This document shows positions 1,895-28,903 of a stretch of DNA of 64,000 nt, in pieces. Each line of letters begins with the position of its first letter. Within the stretch, counting starts at the first letter, position 1. The notes beneath the pieces are model-generated. The model was not told the origin of the DNA and did not search any database. It worked only from the letters and a program-made list of their open reading frames with translations. The stretch spans positions 95 through 64,094 of the forward strand of contig JAZNCT010000065.1 in NCBI GenBank assembly GCA_045587665.1, given 5' to 3'. The position numbers and the translations under genes were made by a program. The DNA is from Eubacteriales bacterium. GTDB taxonomy: Bacteria > Bacillota > Clostridia > Oscillospirales > CAG-272.

Positions 1895-2458
1895 ATGATA
1901 ATACCATTCAAATGCAATAAAGTTAAACTTACATCCGCATACGGTAACAGGGTACTGAACGGGGTAAAGCAGTTCCATGGCGGTTACGATCTTGTGGGCG
2001 TTGGTTCATATGAAGTAGTTGCCGCTGTCCCCGGCAAGGTCATCCGCTCACGGATCGTCACCGACAAGACCAACACCACATGGCAGTGGGGCAATTACGT
2101 TTGCGTGCGGGGCACTGACGGGCTTGACTATTATTACTGTCATTTGGCAAGCCGCGCCGTTACAGAGGGGCAGACCGTCCGTGCCGGGGACAAGCTCGGC
2201 ATTATGGGCAACACGGGCTATTCATTCGGTGCGCATCTGCATTTTGAGGTGCGCAGGCAAGGCAAGGCTATTGATCCTTCTCCTATTCTTGGAATACAGA
2301 ACAGGATAGGTACATACCGTCTCCCGGACCAATACGAAAAGGACATCGCCATTCTCTCTGAAAAAGGCGTGATATCCTCGCCTTCCTACTGGCTGAAGCG
2401 CAAAAACGTCGACCCCTATTTCCCAAAGCTTATTCACAATATTGCGAAACAGTTTTGA
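1895..2458 (+). CDS. M23 family metallopeptidase (phage endolysin)
   Basis: M23 zinc motifs HGGYDL and GNTGYSFGAHLHFEV. Last gene of the prophage lysis cassette. Confidence 0.8.
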   Translation: MIIPFKCNKVKLTSAYGNRVLNGVKQFHGGYDLVGVGSYEVVAAVPGKVIRSRIVTDKTNTTWQWGNYVCVRGTDGLDYYYCHLASRAVTEGQTVRAGDKLGIMGNTGYSFGAHLHFEVRRQGKAIDPSPILGIQNRIGTYRLPDQYEKDIAILSEKGVISSPSYWLKRKNVDPYFPKLIHNIAKQF

Positions 2459-4705: not shown

Positions 4706-6106
4706 GTGAAAAAAAGCTTGTTTGCGCCTACGGATATGACCGTTGGCACACCTTGGAAAAGTATTGTTATGTTTACCCTGCCTATGCTTATAGGCAACAT
4801 CGCTCAGCAGCTATACAACACTGTAGACAGTATTGTTGTTGGGCAGTATATCGGAGATAATGCGCTGGCTGCTGTTGGCAGTGCAGGTCCGATAGTCAAT
4901 CTTCTTCTCGTTCTCTTTATAGGAATCTCTGCCGGAACAAATGTTATGATCTCTCAATATTTCGGGGCAAAAAACAGAGAAAGCCTTTCCTATACCGTTG
5001 GAAATTCCATTACGGTAACCGCCATTGCTTGCATACTTCTTATGCTTCTTGCAACACCTTTTATAAGACCTCTTCTCGTTGTGCTCAACACCCCCGAAAC
5101 TCTTATTGAAGGCTACAATGATTATACCATTCTCGACGCCTGCACAGAATATCTCACCATTTCTGTTATCGGAGTTGCCGGTATGGCTTTTTATAATATT
5201 CTCAGCAGCATAATCCGTGGAATGGGAGATTCGGTTTCGGCACTTATATATCTGCTTGTGGCAACAGTGGTAAACATAGCTCTTGATATTTATTTTGTTG
5301 CTGTTCTCAGAATGGGCGTTGGCGGCGTTGCTCTTGCAACGGTTATTGCGCAGATCATCTCATCGGGGCTTTGCCTTCTAAAGCTTGCAAAAATGAAGGA
5401 GCATTTTGATTTCAAGCTGAAACATCTTCGCCCTTCCTCTCTTTTTGTTAAAACTATAATACGCCTCGGTCTGCCTGCAGGCCTTACACAGGCTATATTT
5501 TCCTCTGCAATGATCATCGTTCAGTCACTTACAAACTGCTTTGAAGAGCAGTTCATTGCTGCAAACGTTGTCATTATGAGAGTTGACGGCTTTGCCATGA
5601 TGCCAAACTTTTCTTTTGGCACAGCTCTAACAACATATGCCGGCCAAAATGTTGGTGCAGGCCTATATGACAGGGTTAAAAAGGGCGCAAAGCAAGGCAC
5701 GCTGATTGCAGTTGGCGTTTCAAGTGCCATAACGGTTCTTATTCTGCTTTTCGGAAAAAATCTCATGTGGCTTTTTACAGACACAAAAGAGCTTGTTGAA
5801 ATGAGCTATAATCTGATGCTCATTTTGGCAGTCGGATATATCGCCATGGCCGTTACTCAAAGTCTTTCGGGAATAATGAGAGGAGCAGGCGACACAGTGA
5901 CACCTATGTGGATATCCCTTATCACAACTGTTGCCGTGCGTGTCCCAATTGCATACGGAATCTCATATCTCACAAGAACTCCCTCTCTGCCCTACGGTAT
6001 AAAGGAATGTATTCAGATATCGCTTCTTTCATCATGGGTTATCGGAGCTATCCTTACTGTCATCTTCTACTGCGGTGGAAAGTGGCAGAAAACTGCTATT
6101 CAATAA
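4706..6106 (+). CDS. MATE family efflux transporter
   Basis: 466-aa polytopic membrane protein. N-terminal MATE signature PMLIGNIAQQLYNTVDSIVVGQYIG. GTG start with GAGG RBS. Confidence 0.85.
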   Translation: MKKSLFAPTDMTVGTPWKSIVMFTLPMLIGNIAQQLYNTVDSIVVGQYIGDNALAAVGSAGPIVNLLLVLFIGISAGTNVMISQYFGAKNRESLSYTVGNSITVTAIACILLMLLATPFIRPLLVVLNTPETLIEGYNDYTILDACTEYLTISVIGVAGMAFYNILSSIIRGMGDSVSALIYLLVATVVNIALDIYFVAVLRMGVGGVALATVIAQIISSGLCLLKLAKMKEHFDFKLKHLRPSSLFVKTIIRLGLPAGLTQAIFSSAMIIVQSLTNCFEEQFIAANVVIMRVDGFAMMPNFSFGTALTTYAGQNVGAGLYDRVKKGAKQGTLIAVGVSSAITVLILLFGKNLMWLFTDTKELVEMSYNLMLILAVGYIAMAVTQSLSGIMRGAGDTVTPMWISLITTVAVRVPIAYGISYLTRTPSLPYGIKECIQISLLSSWVIGAILTVIFYCGGKWQKTAIQ

Positions 6107-26042: not shown

Positions 26043-26120
26043 CCTGCTCCTTTCTGCATTTTCGTGAGACCACCAAAATGTCAATTCAAATTTGCAATAG
26101 TATGGCATTTTGAATAGATA

Positions 26121-26149
26121 TTGACAAAAATCGGCAGATATGATATACT
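26121..26149 (+). promoter_or_regulatory. promoter of toxin-like mRNA A
   Basis: TTGACA, 17 nt, TATACT, with TG upstream of the -10. Confidence 0.6.
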
Positions 26150-26266
26150 TATCGGCGGAGATCCGAAAGGAGATCCCGGAGAACACCATAAACGGTGGCG
26201 GTTGCTTCCCTTAATCGGGAATGCAGATTTCTTTTGTTTGCCTTCCCGAGAGGGGAGGTGATGCTG

Positions 26267-26356
26267 ATGTTTGTTACATGGGAACTGCTGTTCCTTTTTG
26301 CGGGTTTTATTCTCGCTCTGCTAACCTACATAGATAATCATAACAAAAAGAAATAA
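26267..26356 (+). CDS. 29-aa hydrophobic peptide, candidate type I toxin (holin-like toxin-type)
   Basis: Product is MFVTWELLFLFAGFILALLTYIDNHNKKK. SD GGGGAGG sits 8 nt upstream (ATG 26261 is an alternative start). One TM helix plus a basic tail. A paralog lies at 28280. Confidence 0.6.
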   Translation: MFVTWELLFLFAGFILALLTYIDNHNKKK

Positions 26357-26424
26357 CCGCCTCACTCCCACATAAGGCGGTTATTTCTATAATCGACAGG
26401 GGGCAACCGACATCGGTGCTCTCC
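26340..26424 (-). ncRNA. candidate antisense RNA A (antitoxin) convergent with the peptide gene
   Basis: Minus-strand consensus promoter TTGACA (26459-54), 17 nt, TATAAT (26436-31). Hairpin 26351-86 followed by ctttttgtt on the minus strand gives an RNA of about 85 nt overlapping the ORF 3' end. RNA ends are predicted, not measured. Confidence 0.5.
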
Positions 26425-26479
26425 GTTATTATTATATACCGCTTTATGCTTTTTGTCAATAGTTTTATTTGATTTATGA

Positions 26480-26516
26480 CCATTTTGTTGATGTCAACAA
26501 AATGGCTTTATTTTTT
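26480..26516 (+). terminator. strong plus-strand intrinsic terminator
   Basis: Stem ccattttgttga/tcaacaaaatgg followed by ctttatttttt. It would end a roughly 360-nt toxin mRNA that covers the whole antisense gene. Confidence 0.7.
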
Positions 26517-27875: not shown

Positions 27876-27989
27876 ATGGAAAATCAGAATTTACGTGAAG
27901 AACTGAAGTCCATCATTGAAGATGCCGATTTCAGTGAAAATGAACTGAAGATTTTAGTTGAAAAAGCAAAAGAAATTATGAATACATAA
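27876..27989 (+). CDS. 37-aa micro-ORF resembling the C-terminal helix of the neighbouring XRE proteins
   Basis: GAAGGAGG RBS 7 nt upstream. Product is MENQNLREELKSIIEDADFSENELKILVEKAKEIMNT. ELKILV aligns with ELKVLV of the XRE at 28931. Below the ORF-track size cutoff. Confidence 0.5.
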   Translation: MENQNLREELKSIIEDADFSENELKILVEKAKEIMNT

Positions 27990-27993
27990 TTTT

Positions 27994-28095
27994 TGGTTTT
28001 TGCTTTCAATTAAAAACTTCGCAAAAGACTTGAGCTGTTCGAGCTGTTTATCGTTCACCCGATAGATGTGTTTGAACAGCTCTCCTTTTTCTGCA
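27994..28095 (-). pseudogene. 3' remnant of a fourth XRE paralog
   Basis: Minus frame reads GELFKHIYRVNDKQLEQLKSFAKFLIESKNQK, homologous to the XRE C-termini. The HTH part is replaced by toxin module B and the stop codon is lost. Confidence 0.5.
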
Positions 28096-28101
28096 AAGTT
28101 C

Positions 28102-28130
28102 TTGACAAAAATTGTCAGTTGTGATATACT
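28102..28130 (+). promoter_or_regulatory. promoter of toxin-like mRNA B
   Basis: TTGACA, 17 nt, TATACT, homologous to 26121-26149. Confidence 0.55.
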
Positions 28131-28279
28131 TTTCTCGGATACCCGAGAGGGAATCCCGGAGAACACCATTACGGTGGCGGTTGCTTCCTTTCTTTAATTA
28201 CGAAAGGAACATCTTTGCTCCTTTCGATTAACATTGAAAGGAGTGGTGCTTATGATTTTCATTATGCACCTTGTTGAGC

Positions 28280-28357
28280 ATGGTTACATACGAAGCCTTA
28301 TTTGCTTTTGCTATGGTACTTATTGCGCTTGCGGCTTTATTTATCGACCGCAAATGA
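28280..28357 (+). CDS. 25-aa hydrophobic peptide, paralog of the 26267 peptide (possibly decaying)
   Basis: MVTYEALFAFAMVLIALAALFIDRK aligns with VTWELLFLFAGFILALLTYID. Relative to copy A, extra sequence of about 28 nt separates the SD (28236-43) from the homologous reading frame, and the SD-proximal ATG 28252 is out of frame with it. Confidence 0.45.
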   Translation: MVTYEALFAFAMVLIALAALFIDRK

Positions 28358-28359
28358 TA

Positions 28360-28446
28360 ACAAAAAAAGATAACCGCCTGACTTCCCAATCTAAACGGTT
28401 ATCTTTTAACTATTAGTACTGGGAGCAACCGTCATCGGTGCTCTCC
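28360..28446 (-). ncRNA. candidate antisense RNA B
   Basis: Minus-strand TTGACA (28481-76), 17 nt, TATAAT (28458-53). Hairpin 28367-28406 followed by tttttgtt on the minus strand. Confidence 0.45.
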
Positions 28447-28486
28447 GTTATTATTATATACCGCTTTTTATGTTTTGTCAATAGTT

Positions 28487-28903
28487 TTATTTGTTTTTGC
28501 TCTCATCTAAATATTTTATAAAAACTTTGAGCTGTTCGAGCTGTTCATCGGTCATTTGATCGATGCAAACGAACAGCTCTTTTTTATTATTGTCTATAGG
28601 CGATGCCGGGGCGGCTTCTTCTTTACCCAAAAGGAAATCAATCGATACGCCGAAATAGTCGGCTATATGATTTAACATTGATTTTATGTGCTCAAATAGC
28701 TCTTTCTCGTTGCCTTCTATTGGTGATGCTGGGGGATTTTCCTCTTTTTCTAAAAGATATTCTACCGATACATCAAAATAGTCAGCAATTTTCCTTAAAG
28801 TTGTTTGCCTTGGTACTGTATTATTATCCCAACACGAGAATGCTGCACCCGAAAGCCCAATAGCTTTGCATACTGCCGTAGGTGCTACATTTTTTTCGAA
28901 CAT
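28487..28903 (-). CDS. XRE-family HTH protein with internally duplicated linker module
   Basis: HTH region CKAIGLSGAAFSCWDNNTVPRQTTLRKIADYF. The segment IADYFxVSxxxLLxKEExxPASPIxxNxKELF occurs twice. C-terminal helix DQMTDEQLEQLKVFIKYL. Confidence 0.8.
   Translation of the reverse strand: MFEKNVAPTAVCKAIGLSGAAFSCWDNNTVPRQTTLRKIADYFDVSVEYLLEKEENPPASPIEGNEKELFEHIKSMLNHIADYFGVSIDFLLGKEEAAPASPIDNNKKELFVCIDQMTDEQLEQLKVFIKYLDESKNK

Follow-up and report, generated by a model that had tools for sequence, protein, structure and literature searches.

In prophage regions of Bacillus subtilis, the type I toxin–antitoxin modules bsrG/SR4, bsrE/SR5, and bsrH/as-bsrH encode small hydrophobic toxins that have a basic C-terminus and match the Hol_Tox family, and their convergent promoters yield a toxin mRNA and an antitoxin RNA complementary to the 3' end of that mRNA. 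In the bsrG mRNA, nucleotides 1–35 pair with nucleotides 232–262 in helix P1, the Shine–Dalgarno sequence (SD) lies in a helix, and the antitoxin, once bound at the 3' side, releases the 5' end and lengthens the SD helix (PMC3834814). In the hok/mok/Sok system of plasmid R1, the regulated SD is carried by an upstream open reading frame (ORF) that overlaps the toxin gene out of frame and whose product is irrelevant, and a 5'–3' fold-back and an anti-SD element keep the mRNA inert. In phage T4, split ribosome-binding sites are bridged by structure, which reduces the distance between SD and start codon from 27 to 11 nt in gene 25 and from 22 to 5 nt in gene 38 (PMC3014915). The BsrG/BsrE/BsrH family, hok/mok, and the T4 split sites were the nearest systems that the literature yielded for the subject of this study, locus B, which occupies positions 28102–28481 of the window (the whole 64,000-nucleotide stretch analyzed here, positions 95–64,094 of contig JAZNCT010000065.1 of an Eubacteriales bacterium). 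Comparison with related loci suggested that locus B is very probably an intact member of a conserved sub-type. In this sub-type, which is apparently undescribed, the sole SD is followed by an out-of-frame start codon masked in a hairpin, and the real toxin start, which has no SD to itself, is found 28 bases farther downstream. No description of this initiation layout was found in the literature searched, which is not proof of novelty. A copy that looks broken, with a displaced start and an SD for the wrong frame, would represent a conserved design. Its sequence features identify locus B as a type I toxin–antitoxin module with the BsrG/SR4 layout and a Hol_Tox-like toxin of 25 amino acids; the full explanation, which adds the mechanism of initiation proposed below, is evenly balanced in our estimation.

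Locus B resembles the bsrG/SR4-type modules in its toxin, its convergent promoters with an antitoxin complementary to the toxin mRNA 3' end, its long P1 helix joining the mRNA ends, its SD in a helix that can be extended by an upstream anti-SD, and its prophage or mobile-element setting. However, the SD of those modules serves the toxin start directly, whereas locus B inserts a hairpin with a masked out-of-frame AUG; it also differs in its host, an uncultured gut Clostridia lineage, and in its toxin, which falls under the Pfam cut-off. With hok/mok/Sok it shares the overlapping out-of-frame upstream ORF with the regulated SD and an irrelevant product, as well as the fold-back and the anti-SD element. 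In contrast to the SD-less toxin of B, hok is preceded by an SD; Sok acts on the 5' side, at the initiation region of mok, whereas the B antitoxin pairs with the 3' untranslated region (UTR). The two share no sequence relationship, and the hosts of hok are Gram-negative. As in T4 genes 25 and 38, a hairpin would bring a distant SD near the start codon in B, although the bridging in B is a prediction. The T4 hairpins enhance translation of structural genes and contain no competing start codon, whereas the hairpin of B holds a conserved AUG at canonical spacing in a toxin mRNA. Locus A (26121–26516 of the window) and the other modules of its type have the same promoter pair, leader, P1, anti-SD/SD hairpin, central hairpin, and 3' box as B.

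Selection on the toxin frame of locus B

A first-pass annotation of the window, made from the sequence alone, had described a peptide frame in B homologous to that of locus A. The frame was present (Table 1) and encoded a small hydrophobic membrane peptide with a charged C-terminus. It matched the Pfam family Hol_Tox (PF16935) with 19.8–20.3 bits (E = 5e-4 to 7e-4); the alignment begins on the methionine of 28280, at profile position 1. The locus A toxin matched with 29.4 bits. Matches at E ≤ 0.01 were obtained for 12 of 19 related toxins. A Pfam family search of the genome itself listed neither the B toxin nor that of a third paralogue, C, and the toxin profile had no relative among solved structures. 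In a collection of 15 billion proteins, the 29-amino-acid toxin of A occurred on 33 contigs; neither the B toxin nor the product of the upstream ORF was present there. A gene caller would choose the wrong frame in B.

Across 16 B-type toxin ORFs, the ratio of nonsynonymous to synonymous changes (pN/pS) was 0.27 in the toxin frame, versus 0.87 and 3.1 in the other two frames, and the column entropies at the three codon positions of the toxin frame were 13.5, 4.9, and 23.6. These values indicated that the 25-amino-acid frame is translated and under purifying selection. Synonymous sites of the toxin ORF differed at 62% between loci (pS 0.625), and this value served as the background for judging the conservation of the elements upstream.

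A start codon, predicted to be masked, between the SD and the toxin start

The distance from the SD to the toxin AUG was 36 nt in B and 8 nt in A, and the extra sequence therefore amounted to 28 nt, in agreement with the first-pass annotation. That annotation had also pointed out that ATG 28252 opens a different frame. This ATG lies 8 nt past the SD, and the ORF that it opens runs to TAG 28414–16 across the entire toxin ORF and the central hairpin; its 54-amino-acid product had no Pfam match. Three features had been overlooked: the pairing between leader and 3' box, the likely read-through of the central hairpin, and a hairpin at 28245–28270 (hairpin 3) that covers ATG 28252. When hairpin 3 is closed, the SD and AUG 28280 are predicted to be separated by 1 + 9 = 10 unpaired nucleotides instead of 36.

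To place this arrangement among related loci, we relied on several searches. The first relatives came from a DNA search of 201 genomes of the bacterial family of the host and matched B through the SD-to-toxin region. A covariance model built from 12 relatives was used for a search of 401 genomes of the family, and two collection scans were added. A scan of genome contigs with a 16-nt pattern of the 3' box, which was too short and gave mostly chance matches, contained 9 true modules, and a metagenome pattern scan gave 4 loci, 2 of which were new variants. All sources together contained 61 distinct modules, among them 36 A-type and 21 B-type loci. The A-type modules have the SD GGAGGUGAU with the toxin start itself 7–10 nt further on, and possess neither hairpin 3 nor a second start. 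The B-type loci, found in 13 of the 401 sampled genomes and in about 10 genera of the same family, show the order SD GRAAGGAG, a start codon 7–10 nt on (ATG in 20, TTG in 1), GGUGC, a loop of 15–19 nt, and GCRCC. The linker that follows is usually 8–14 nt long, mostly 9 or 12, and lacks SD-like sequence; among the tabulated B-type loci, the linkers share no conserved purine-rich motif. Most loci start the toxin with ATG and three (L174, L175, and L176) with GTG, whereas L197 has no start at the canonical site. Two of the GUG-start lineages (L174 and L175) have intact toxins. Measured from the upstream AUG, the toxin start lies at 28, 29, 31, 32, 34, or 35 nt, and at 30 nt in a single locus (L047), so that the upstream AUG is out of frame in 20 of 21 loci.

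In all 20 B-type loci folded from the SD to the toxin start, the same two-part hairpin was the minimum-free-energy structure (−8 to −14 kcal/mol), and the upstream AUG was fully paired in 17 of them, versus 5.6 expected when the other loop bases were shuffled. The outer stem, GGUGC/GCRCC, is invariant or altered only with pairing kept: the rare changes in the 3' arm (A to G in L047 and in L174/L176, C to U in L011) preserve the pairs. The strand opposite the upstream AUG varies (UCAU, UCGU, UUUAUA, AUCAU, and GUCAU) whereas the AUG itself is constant, which indicates that the AUG is constrained beyond pairing, most simply as a start codon. Since the upstream AUG, GGUGC, and GCACC are kept almost without exception despite the 62% synonymous divergence, they are under selection as well. 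The frame class, in contrast, shifts through 1-nt insertions or deletions in the hairpin loop (offset 1 or 2 modulo 3); the product of the upstream ORF is therefore not conserved, and its length ranges from 24 to 54 amino acids. We read AUG 28252 as a selected start codon with an unselected product, that is, as a decoy or leader ORF. The comparison thereby established the anatomy of B and its conservation, and showed that the toxin frame, the stem, and the start codon upstream are all selected.

A proposed split ribosome-binding site with a decoy

Which AUG the ribosomes use, and when, we infer as follows. The toxin must be translated and has no SD (−1.9 kcal/mol for the best anti-SD pairing upstream of its start, versus −15.3 kcal/mol predicted for pairing of the SD with the 16S rRNA 3' end), and some relatives start with GUG; the sole SD must therefore serve the toxin, and a split site bridged by structure, like those of T4, is the established means for this. 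The GUG starts in two lineages with intact toxins point the same way, since GUG is plausible only with help from an SD. With hairpin 3 closed, AUG 28252 would be masked and the distance from SD to AUG 28280 cut from 36 to about 10 nt, and the bridged SD would act as a split ribosome-binding site that permits low-level initiation of the toxin at AUG 28280. With hairpin 3 open, ribosomes would start at AUG 28252, synthesize the unselected out-of-frame peptide, and occlude the toxin start. Hairpin 3 would thus set the share of initiations that yield toxin and provide a safety layer beyond SD sequestration and the antitoxin. The narrow distance between hairpin and toxin start, mostly 9 or 12 nt, counts for the split-site reading, and with the hairpin closed the effective spacing in the relatives is predicted to be about 9–16 nt. 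The avoidance of an in-frame upstream AUG fits a decoy, because an in-frame start would give an extended toxin. We put forward the combined model of split site and decoy as a tentative proposal with somewhat less than an even chance of being right. A further claim, slightly less probable again, is that the layout is a two-start translational switch new to toxin–antitoxin systems, in which one SD serves either a masked decoy AUG or, when bridged, an SD-less toxin AUG. In such a switch, the stability of the hairpin, possibly through temperature, ribosome load, or antitoxin-triggered refolding, would set the number of toxin-producing initiations.

Several observations weigh against this interpretation. 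The 21 B-type loci share descent, and the counts given above overstate their independence. The outer stem is almost invariant and offers little true covariation, and it could be conserved for the sake of another partner. In the predictions, the GGU of the 5' arm can join the SD/anti-SD duplex (12 bp in all, with one bulge), so that ribosome binding may open hairpin 3 and favor AUG 28252. The effective spacing is 13–16 nt in some relatives, above the optimum, and in L047 the upstream AUG is in frame with the toxin. Finally, with 20.3 bits at best, the B toxin does not reach the curated Pfam gathering cut-off (23.3 bits).

If the model is true, the module would contain an extra layer that keeps lethal peptides silent yet inducible, with two start codons competing via one hairpin. 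Split ribosome-binding sites, a principle described in T4, would then also operate in Firmicutes, in genes of the cell and of mobile elements. A two-start switch, if real, would be the first such site outside the T-even phages, and no Gram-positive type I system would have provided a decoy or leader ORF before it. With a length of only about 45 nt, the element would also be a natural candidate for a tunable translation-attenuation part.

Alternative explanations of the layout

The main rival explanation is a mok/hok-like coupling, in which translation of the leader ORF from AUG 28252, rather than its product, would unfold the region for initiation at AUG 28280. We consider it unlikely, and to the same degree the associated view that hairpin 3 and the anti-SD hairpin both silence the leader ORF. 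Coupling accounts for an upstream start that is kept at ideal SD spacing (20 ATG and 1 TTG in 21 loci) with a product that is not conserved, and for an ORF that is out of frame and overlaps the toxin, as mok does over hok. The module has hok-like ingredients, namely long-distance 5'–3' pairing and an anti-SD element, and the SD/anti-SD duplex that may open hairpin 3 suits this rival as well. Expression of hok requires that mok be translated as far as the hok initiation region (PMC9841398), which counts for coupling. However, hok has an SD of its own, whereas no sequence ahead of the B toxin start pairs with the anti-SD, and GUG is the start codon in two lineages; coupling thus offers no way for an SD-less AUG or GUG to recruit a ribosome. 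Internal initiation that does not depend on an SD is inefficient in Firmicutes, which also counts against coupling. Furthermore, the target of the antitoxin is the 3' UTR and not the leader initiation region, and the leader ORF has no stop near the toxin start, which excludes termination-reinitiation.

Activation by processing would require a cut between hairpin 3 and AUG 28280, giving a leaderless or short-leader mRNA for 70S ribosomes, with no toxin made from the primary transcript. The SD and the upstream AUG would then serve only the unprocessed, harmless form. We regard both parts of this explanation as improbable. The toxin start without an SD and the single-stranded, U-rich linker (28271–79) after a stable hairpin would suit it, and many type I toxin mRNAs are reported to need processing before they can be translated (PMC11228461), a point in its favor. 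The linker sequence is not conserved, however, and offers no evidence of a cleavage site, and processing leaves unexplained both the narrow distance from hairpin to start and the masking of the upstream AUG. GUG starts such as those of L174 and L175 are poor for leaderless initiation, a further point against it.

The first-pass annotation had suggested that B might be an inactivated toxin gene with a live antisense RNA, an orphan antitoxin possibly protecting against locus A. The SD-proximal AUG is indeed out of frame, the antisense promoter matches the consensus perfectly, and the family does contain decayed copies; near-identity of the A and B antitoxins in their 5' domains also makes cross-protection physically plausible. 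The copies that have truly decayed look different from B, however: in L176 the fourth toxin codon is TAG, and in L198 the SD has degenerated and the body is truncated. The supposed defect of B recurs in 21 loci of about 10 genera, with the toxin ORF and start intact except for the nonsense codon of L176 and the missing canonical start of L197. The low pN/pS of the toxin frame, the mostly synonymous differences between the B toxin and its relatives, and the selection on the upstream AUG and the stem themselves also speak against decay, which we judge very improbable. The two decayed copies (L176 = G363:C126; L198 = G224:C35) provide a yardstick for decay in the B-type family.

That the 54-amino-acid protein from ATG 28252 is the real product and the 25-amino-acid frame incidental is hardly credible: its start has the only SD at canonical spacing and is the one that a gene caller would choose, but the protein has no family match and is missing from the 15-billion-protein collection, its frame relative to the conserved downstream sequence flips between +1 and +2 among relatives with lengths of 24 to 54 amino acids and pN/pS values of 0.87 and 3.1, and its ORF passes through the terminator hairpin.

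Three further candidates were tried and rejected. The first-pass annotation had offered unconventional initiation at ATG 28280 or at TTG 28271/28274. The ATG was supported by the layout in 21 loci and the selected toxin frame, whereas the TTG codons were not conserved. An N-terminally extended toxin, including one from these TTG codons, was also rejected because the stretch from the upstream AUG to the toxin start contains in-frame stops in the majority of relatives, such as TAG at −3 in L013, TAA at −6 in L175, and TAG at −9 in L174. Termination-reinitiation was discarded because no relative has an upstream ORF that ends near the toxin start, and the ORF that ends at TGA 28275–77 has no start codon after the SD. 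A programmed frameshift or bypass leading from the upstream AUG to the toxin frame was rejected, since it would need opposite shift directions among relatives, whose offsets are 1 and 2 modulo 3.

Promoters, leader, and SD hairpins

The promoters, the leader core, the 3' box, and the antisense promoter reported in the first-pass annotation were all found in the sequence at those positions (Table 1). Among promoter-like sites between 25.9 and 28.7 kb, the top four were the sense and antisense pair of B and their counterparts in locus A. Repeat finding and alignment revealed paralogy between A (26108–26475) and B (28089–28497) over the promoter, leader, central hairpin, 3' box, and antisense promoter. 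The sense promoter of B is kept in locus A (alignment; repeat family D6), and the 3' box and antisense promoter are 90% identical across 80 nt. Transcription of the toxin mRNA from the sense promoter, which is of the sigma-70 type, is predicted to start near 28137, and the stem-loop there would protect the 5' end. Compared with shuffled sequences, the module fold of B had z = −4.5, and with the 3' box it reached −114.5 kcal/mol with z = −8.3; the listed features therefore exceed chance. An Rfam gathering scan of the window found two tRNAs only and no known RNA family across locus B.

Table 1. Positions (in the window) of the elements recognized or predicted in and next to locus B
Element	Position	Strand	Basis and remarks
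Sense (toxin mRNA) promoter	28102–28130	+	TTGACA 28102–07, 17 nt, TG-extended TATACT 28125–30; 11/12 matches
5'-terminal stem-loop GGAUACCCGAGAGGGAAUCC, predicted	28137–28156	+	Minimum-free-energy and centroid folds
Leader, 5' strand of long-distance helix P1, CGGAGAACACC...ACGGUGGCGGUUGCUUCC	28157–28188	+	Pairs with 3' box 28421–28447 in fold
Hairpin 1, anti-SD-like UUCCUUUC (28185–92) / SD mimic GAAAGGAA (28202–09)	28185–28209	+	Fold, covariation
Hairpin 2, anti-SD CUCCUUUC (28218–25) sequestering SD GAAAGGAG (28236–43)	28218–28243	+	Fold, covariation
Hairpin 3, outer stem GGUGC (28245–49)/GCACC (28266–70), inner AUGA (28252–55)/UCAU (28259–62)	28245–28270	+	Fold
Out-of-frame ORF from SD-proximal AUG	28252–28416	+	54 amino acids from ATG; 60 from TTG in ORF-finder listing
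Linker, hairpin 3 to toxin AUG, 9 nt	28271–28279	+	No SD; best anti-SD pairing −1.9 kcal/mol
Toxin ORF MVTYEALFAFAMVLIALAALFIDRK, 25 amino acids, Hol_Tox-like	28280–28357	+	Codons 28280–28354, stop TGA 28355–57
Antitoxin RNA, predicted, about 85–90 nt, 5' stem-loop and terminator hairpin	about 28358–28446	−	Promoter, fold; ends inferred
Central hairpin AAAAGAUAACCG ... CGGUUAUCUUUU	28365–28407	both	Good antisense intrinsic terminator, weak sense one
3' box GGGAGCAACCGUCAUCGGUGCUCUCCG, 3' strand of helix P1	28421–28447	+	Complement is the 5' domain of the antitoxin RNA
Antisense (antitoxin) promoter	28453–28481	−	TTGACA-17-TATAAT at 28481–28453; 12/12 matches
Candidate terminator of full-length toxin mRNA, GAGCUGUUCG ... 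CGAACAGCUC + UUUUUU	28529–28585	+	Centroid fold; inside 3' end of opposite-strand XRE gene; tentative

Helix P1 was examined with leaders and 3' boxes of 50 modules from many genomes. Cognate leader/3'-box duplexes had a mean of −44.9 kcal/mol versus −35.5 kcal/mol for non-cognate ones, none of 5000 permutations was as good, and compensatory changes were visible, among others in the pairs GAAGCUGUC/GACAGCUUC and GAGUCAUCC/GGAUGGCUC. In the minimum-free-energy folds of B, the SD GAAAGGAG forms eight perfect base pairs with CTCCTTTC (28218–25), and the equivalent hairpin of locus A is CCTTCCC/GGGGAGG; the first-pass annotation had correctly described this sequestration by a sequence unlike that of A, and had argued for function from a structure conserved without its sequence. 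Covariation agreed with that argument. In 66 distinct aligned module sequences, whose alignment had been fitted to the model, the anti-SD/SD hairpin and the hairpin upstream of it covary, with 93.5% of cells paired and a score of 0.56, versus 0.30 for shuffles and 0.11–0.26 for slid controls. Changes on both sides were found in 7 of 7 pairs of helix 1 (91.7% of cells paired) and in 8 of 8 pairs of helices 2–3 (anti-SD/SD). The predicted architecture of the module is thus supported by covariation and by the experimentally probed precedent of bsrG.

A third paralogue, C, of the A/C type with the toxin MKVENVTWNDLIQIAFLVFAILSCFYNKKR, is present in the same 1.73-Mb genome (G000:C56, about 5000–5360, minus strand, equal to L009, about 2000–2360, minus strand). 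Its setting is chromosomal housekeeping, between ilvC and ilvD, and not a prophage.

Antitoxin RNA and transcript ends

The predicted antitoxin RNA is complementary to the 3' UTR of the toxin mRNA, including the 3' box. The fold predicted for this RNA (z = −7.1) comprises a 5' stem-loop and the central hairpin, which on the antisense strand has 19 paired positions followed by UUUUUUUG with seven U. On the sense strand it is weaker, with C–A mismatches in place of G–U pairs, a 19-nt loop, and a short U tract, and a terminator scan did not call it; the toxin mRNA is likely to read through. Several relatives have a clear terminator directly past the antisense promoter. In B, the toxin mRNA may end inside the 3' end of the XRE gene, antisense to it. 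The C-terminal coding repeats of the opposite-strand XRE paralogues contain a long hairpin with a T-run on the plus strand at 28529–28585 and at 28033–28088, one copy just downstream of module B and the other just upstream of its promoter.

The first-pass annotation had expected antitoxin B to be specific with respect to A. The folding energies did not bear this out. The predicted antitoxins of A (26338–26424, minus strand) and B (28355–28446, minus strand, in this comparison) have few differences in their first 32 nt and divergent terminator loops. Duplexes of the first 32 nt were predicted at −52 and −54 kcal/mol for the cross combinations versus −71 and −74 kcal/mol for the cognate ones, and whole-RNA duplexes at −100 and −104 versus −175 kcal/mol. 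The heteroduplexes thus keep about 57–60% of the cognate energy overall and about 70–77% in the 5' domain. Because the 5' domains are nearly identical, cross-talk between A and B is plausible, and any specificity would come from the divergent hairpin loops.

Distribution, variants, and possible origin of the B-type layout

Outside the family, no B-type locus turned up among 400 order-level genomes, in phages or plasmids with annotation (searched for the module by blastn in distant mode), or in IMG/VR (searched with the B-type pattern). The order-level covariance-model search gave modules outside the family in one other genus only, all with low scores in the A-type range.

In hairpin 3, the reverse complement of the 5' half (GGTGCTTATGA giving TCATAAGCACC) is similar to the 3' half, TCATTATGCACC, and the A-type modules L171 and L192 already have GGTGC directly after the SD. 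Judging from these resemblances, hairpin 3 may have arisen through inverted duplication of an ancestral start region. L047, on contig JAGCZO010000137.1 of a yak rumen Clostridia metagenome-assembled genome, is the only B-type-like locus with an in-frame upstream AUG (offset 30). It encodes a 37-amino-acid toxin with a 10-residue N-terminal extension and lacks the canonical AUGA/UCAU inner helix, and it may be an evolutionary intermediate between A-type and B-type. The B-type modules L014 (G188:C25) and L058 keep the ancestral GTTACAT motif, but the ATG that opens their hydrophobic toxin, MITTDAILAV...KNRK, is in frame +1 with respect to it. In these two loci, the toxin appears to have changed reading frame (overprinting) with the layout of SD, masked AUG, and hairpin retained.

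Tandem arrays of two or three modules per contig were seen on G139:C20 (L013, L177) and G183:C14 (L011, L171); the array on G183 mixes A-type and B-type modules, and that on G139 has leader-less B-type copies. In the window, a 71-amino-acid ORF at 27954–28169 on the minus strand, ending in ...NDKQLEQLKSFAKFLIESKNQKL, is a remnant of the C-terminus of an XRE paralogue, and the promoter and leader of B lie over its 5' part.

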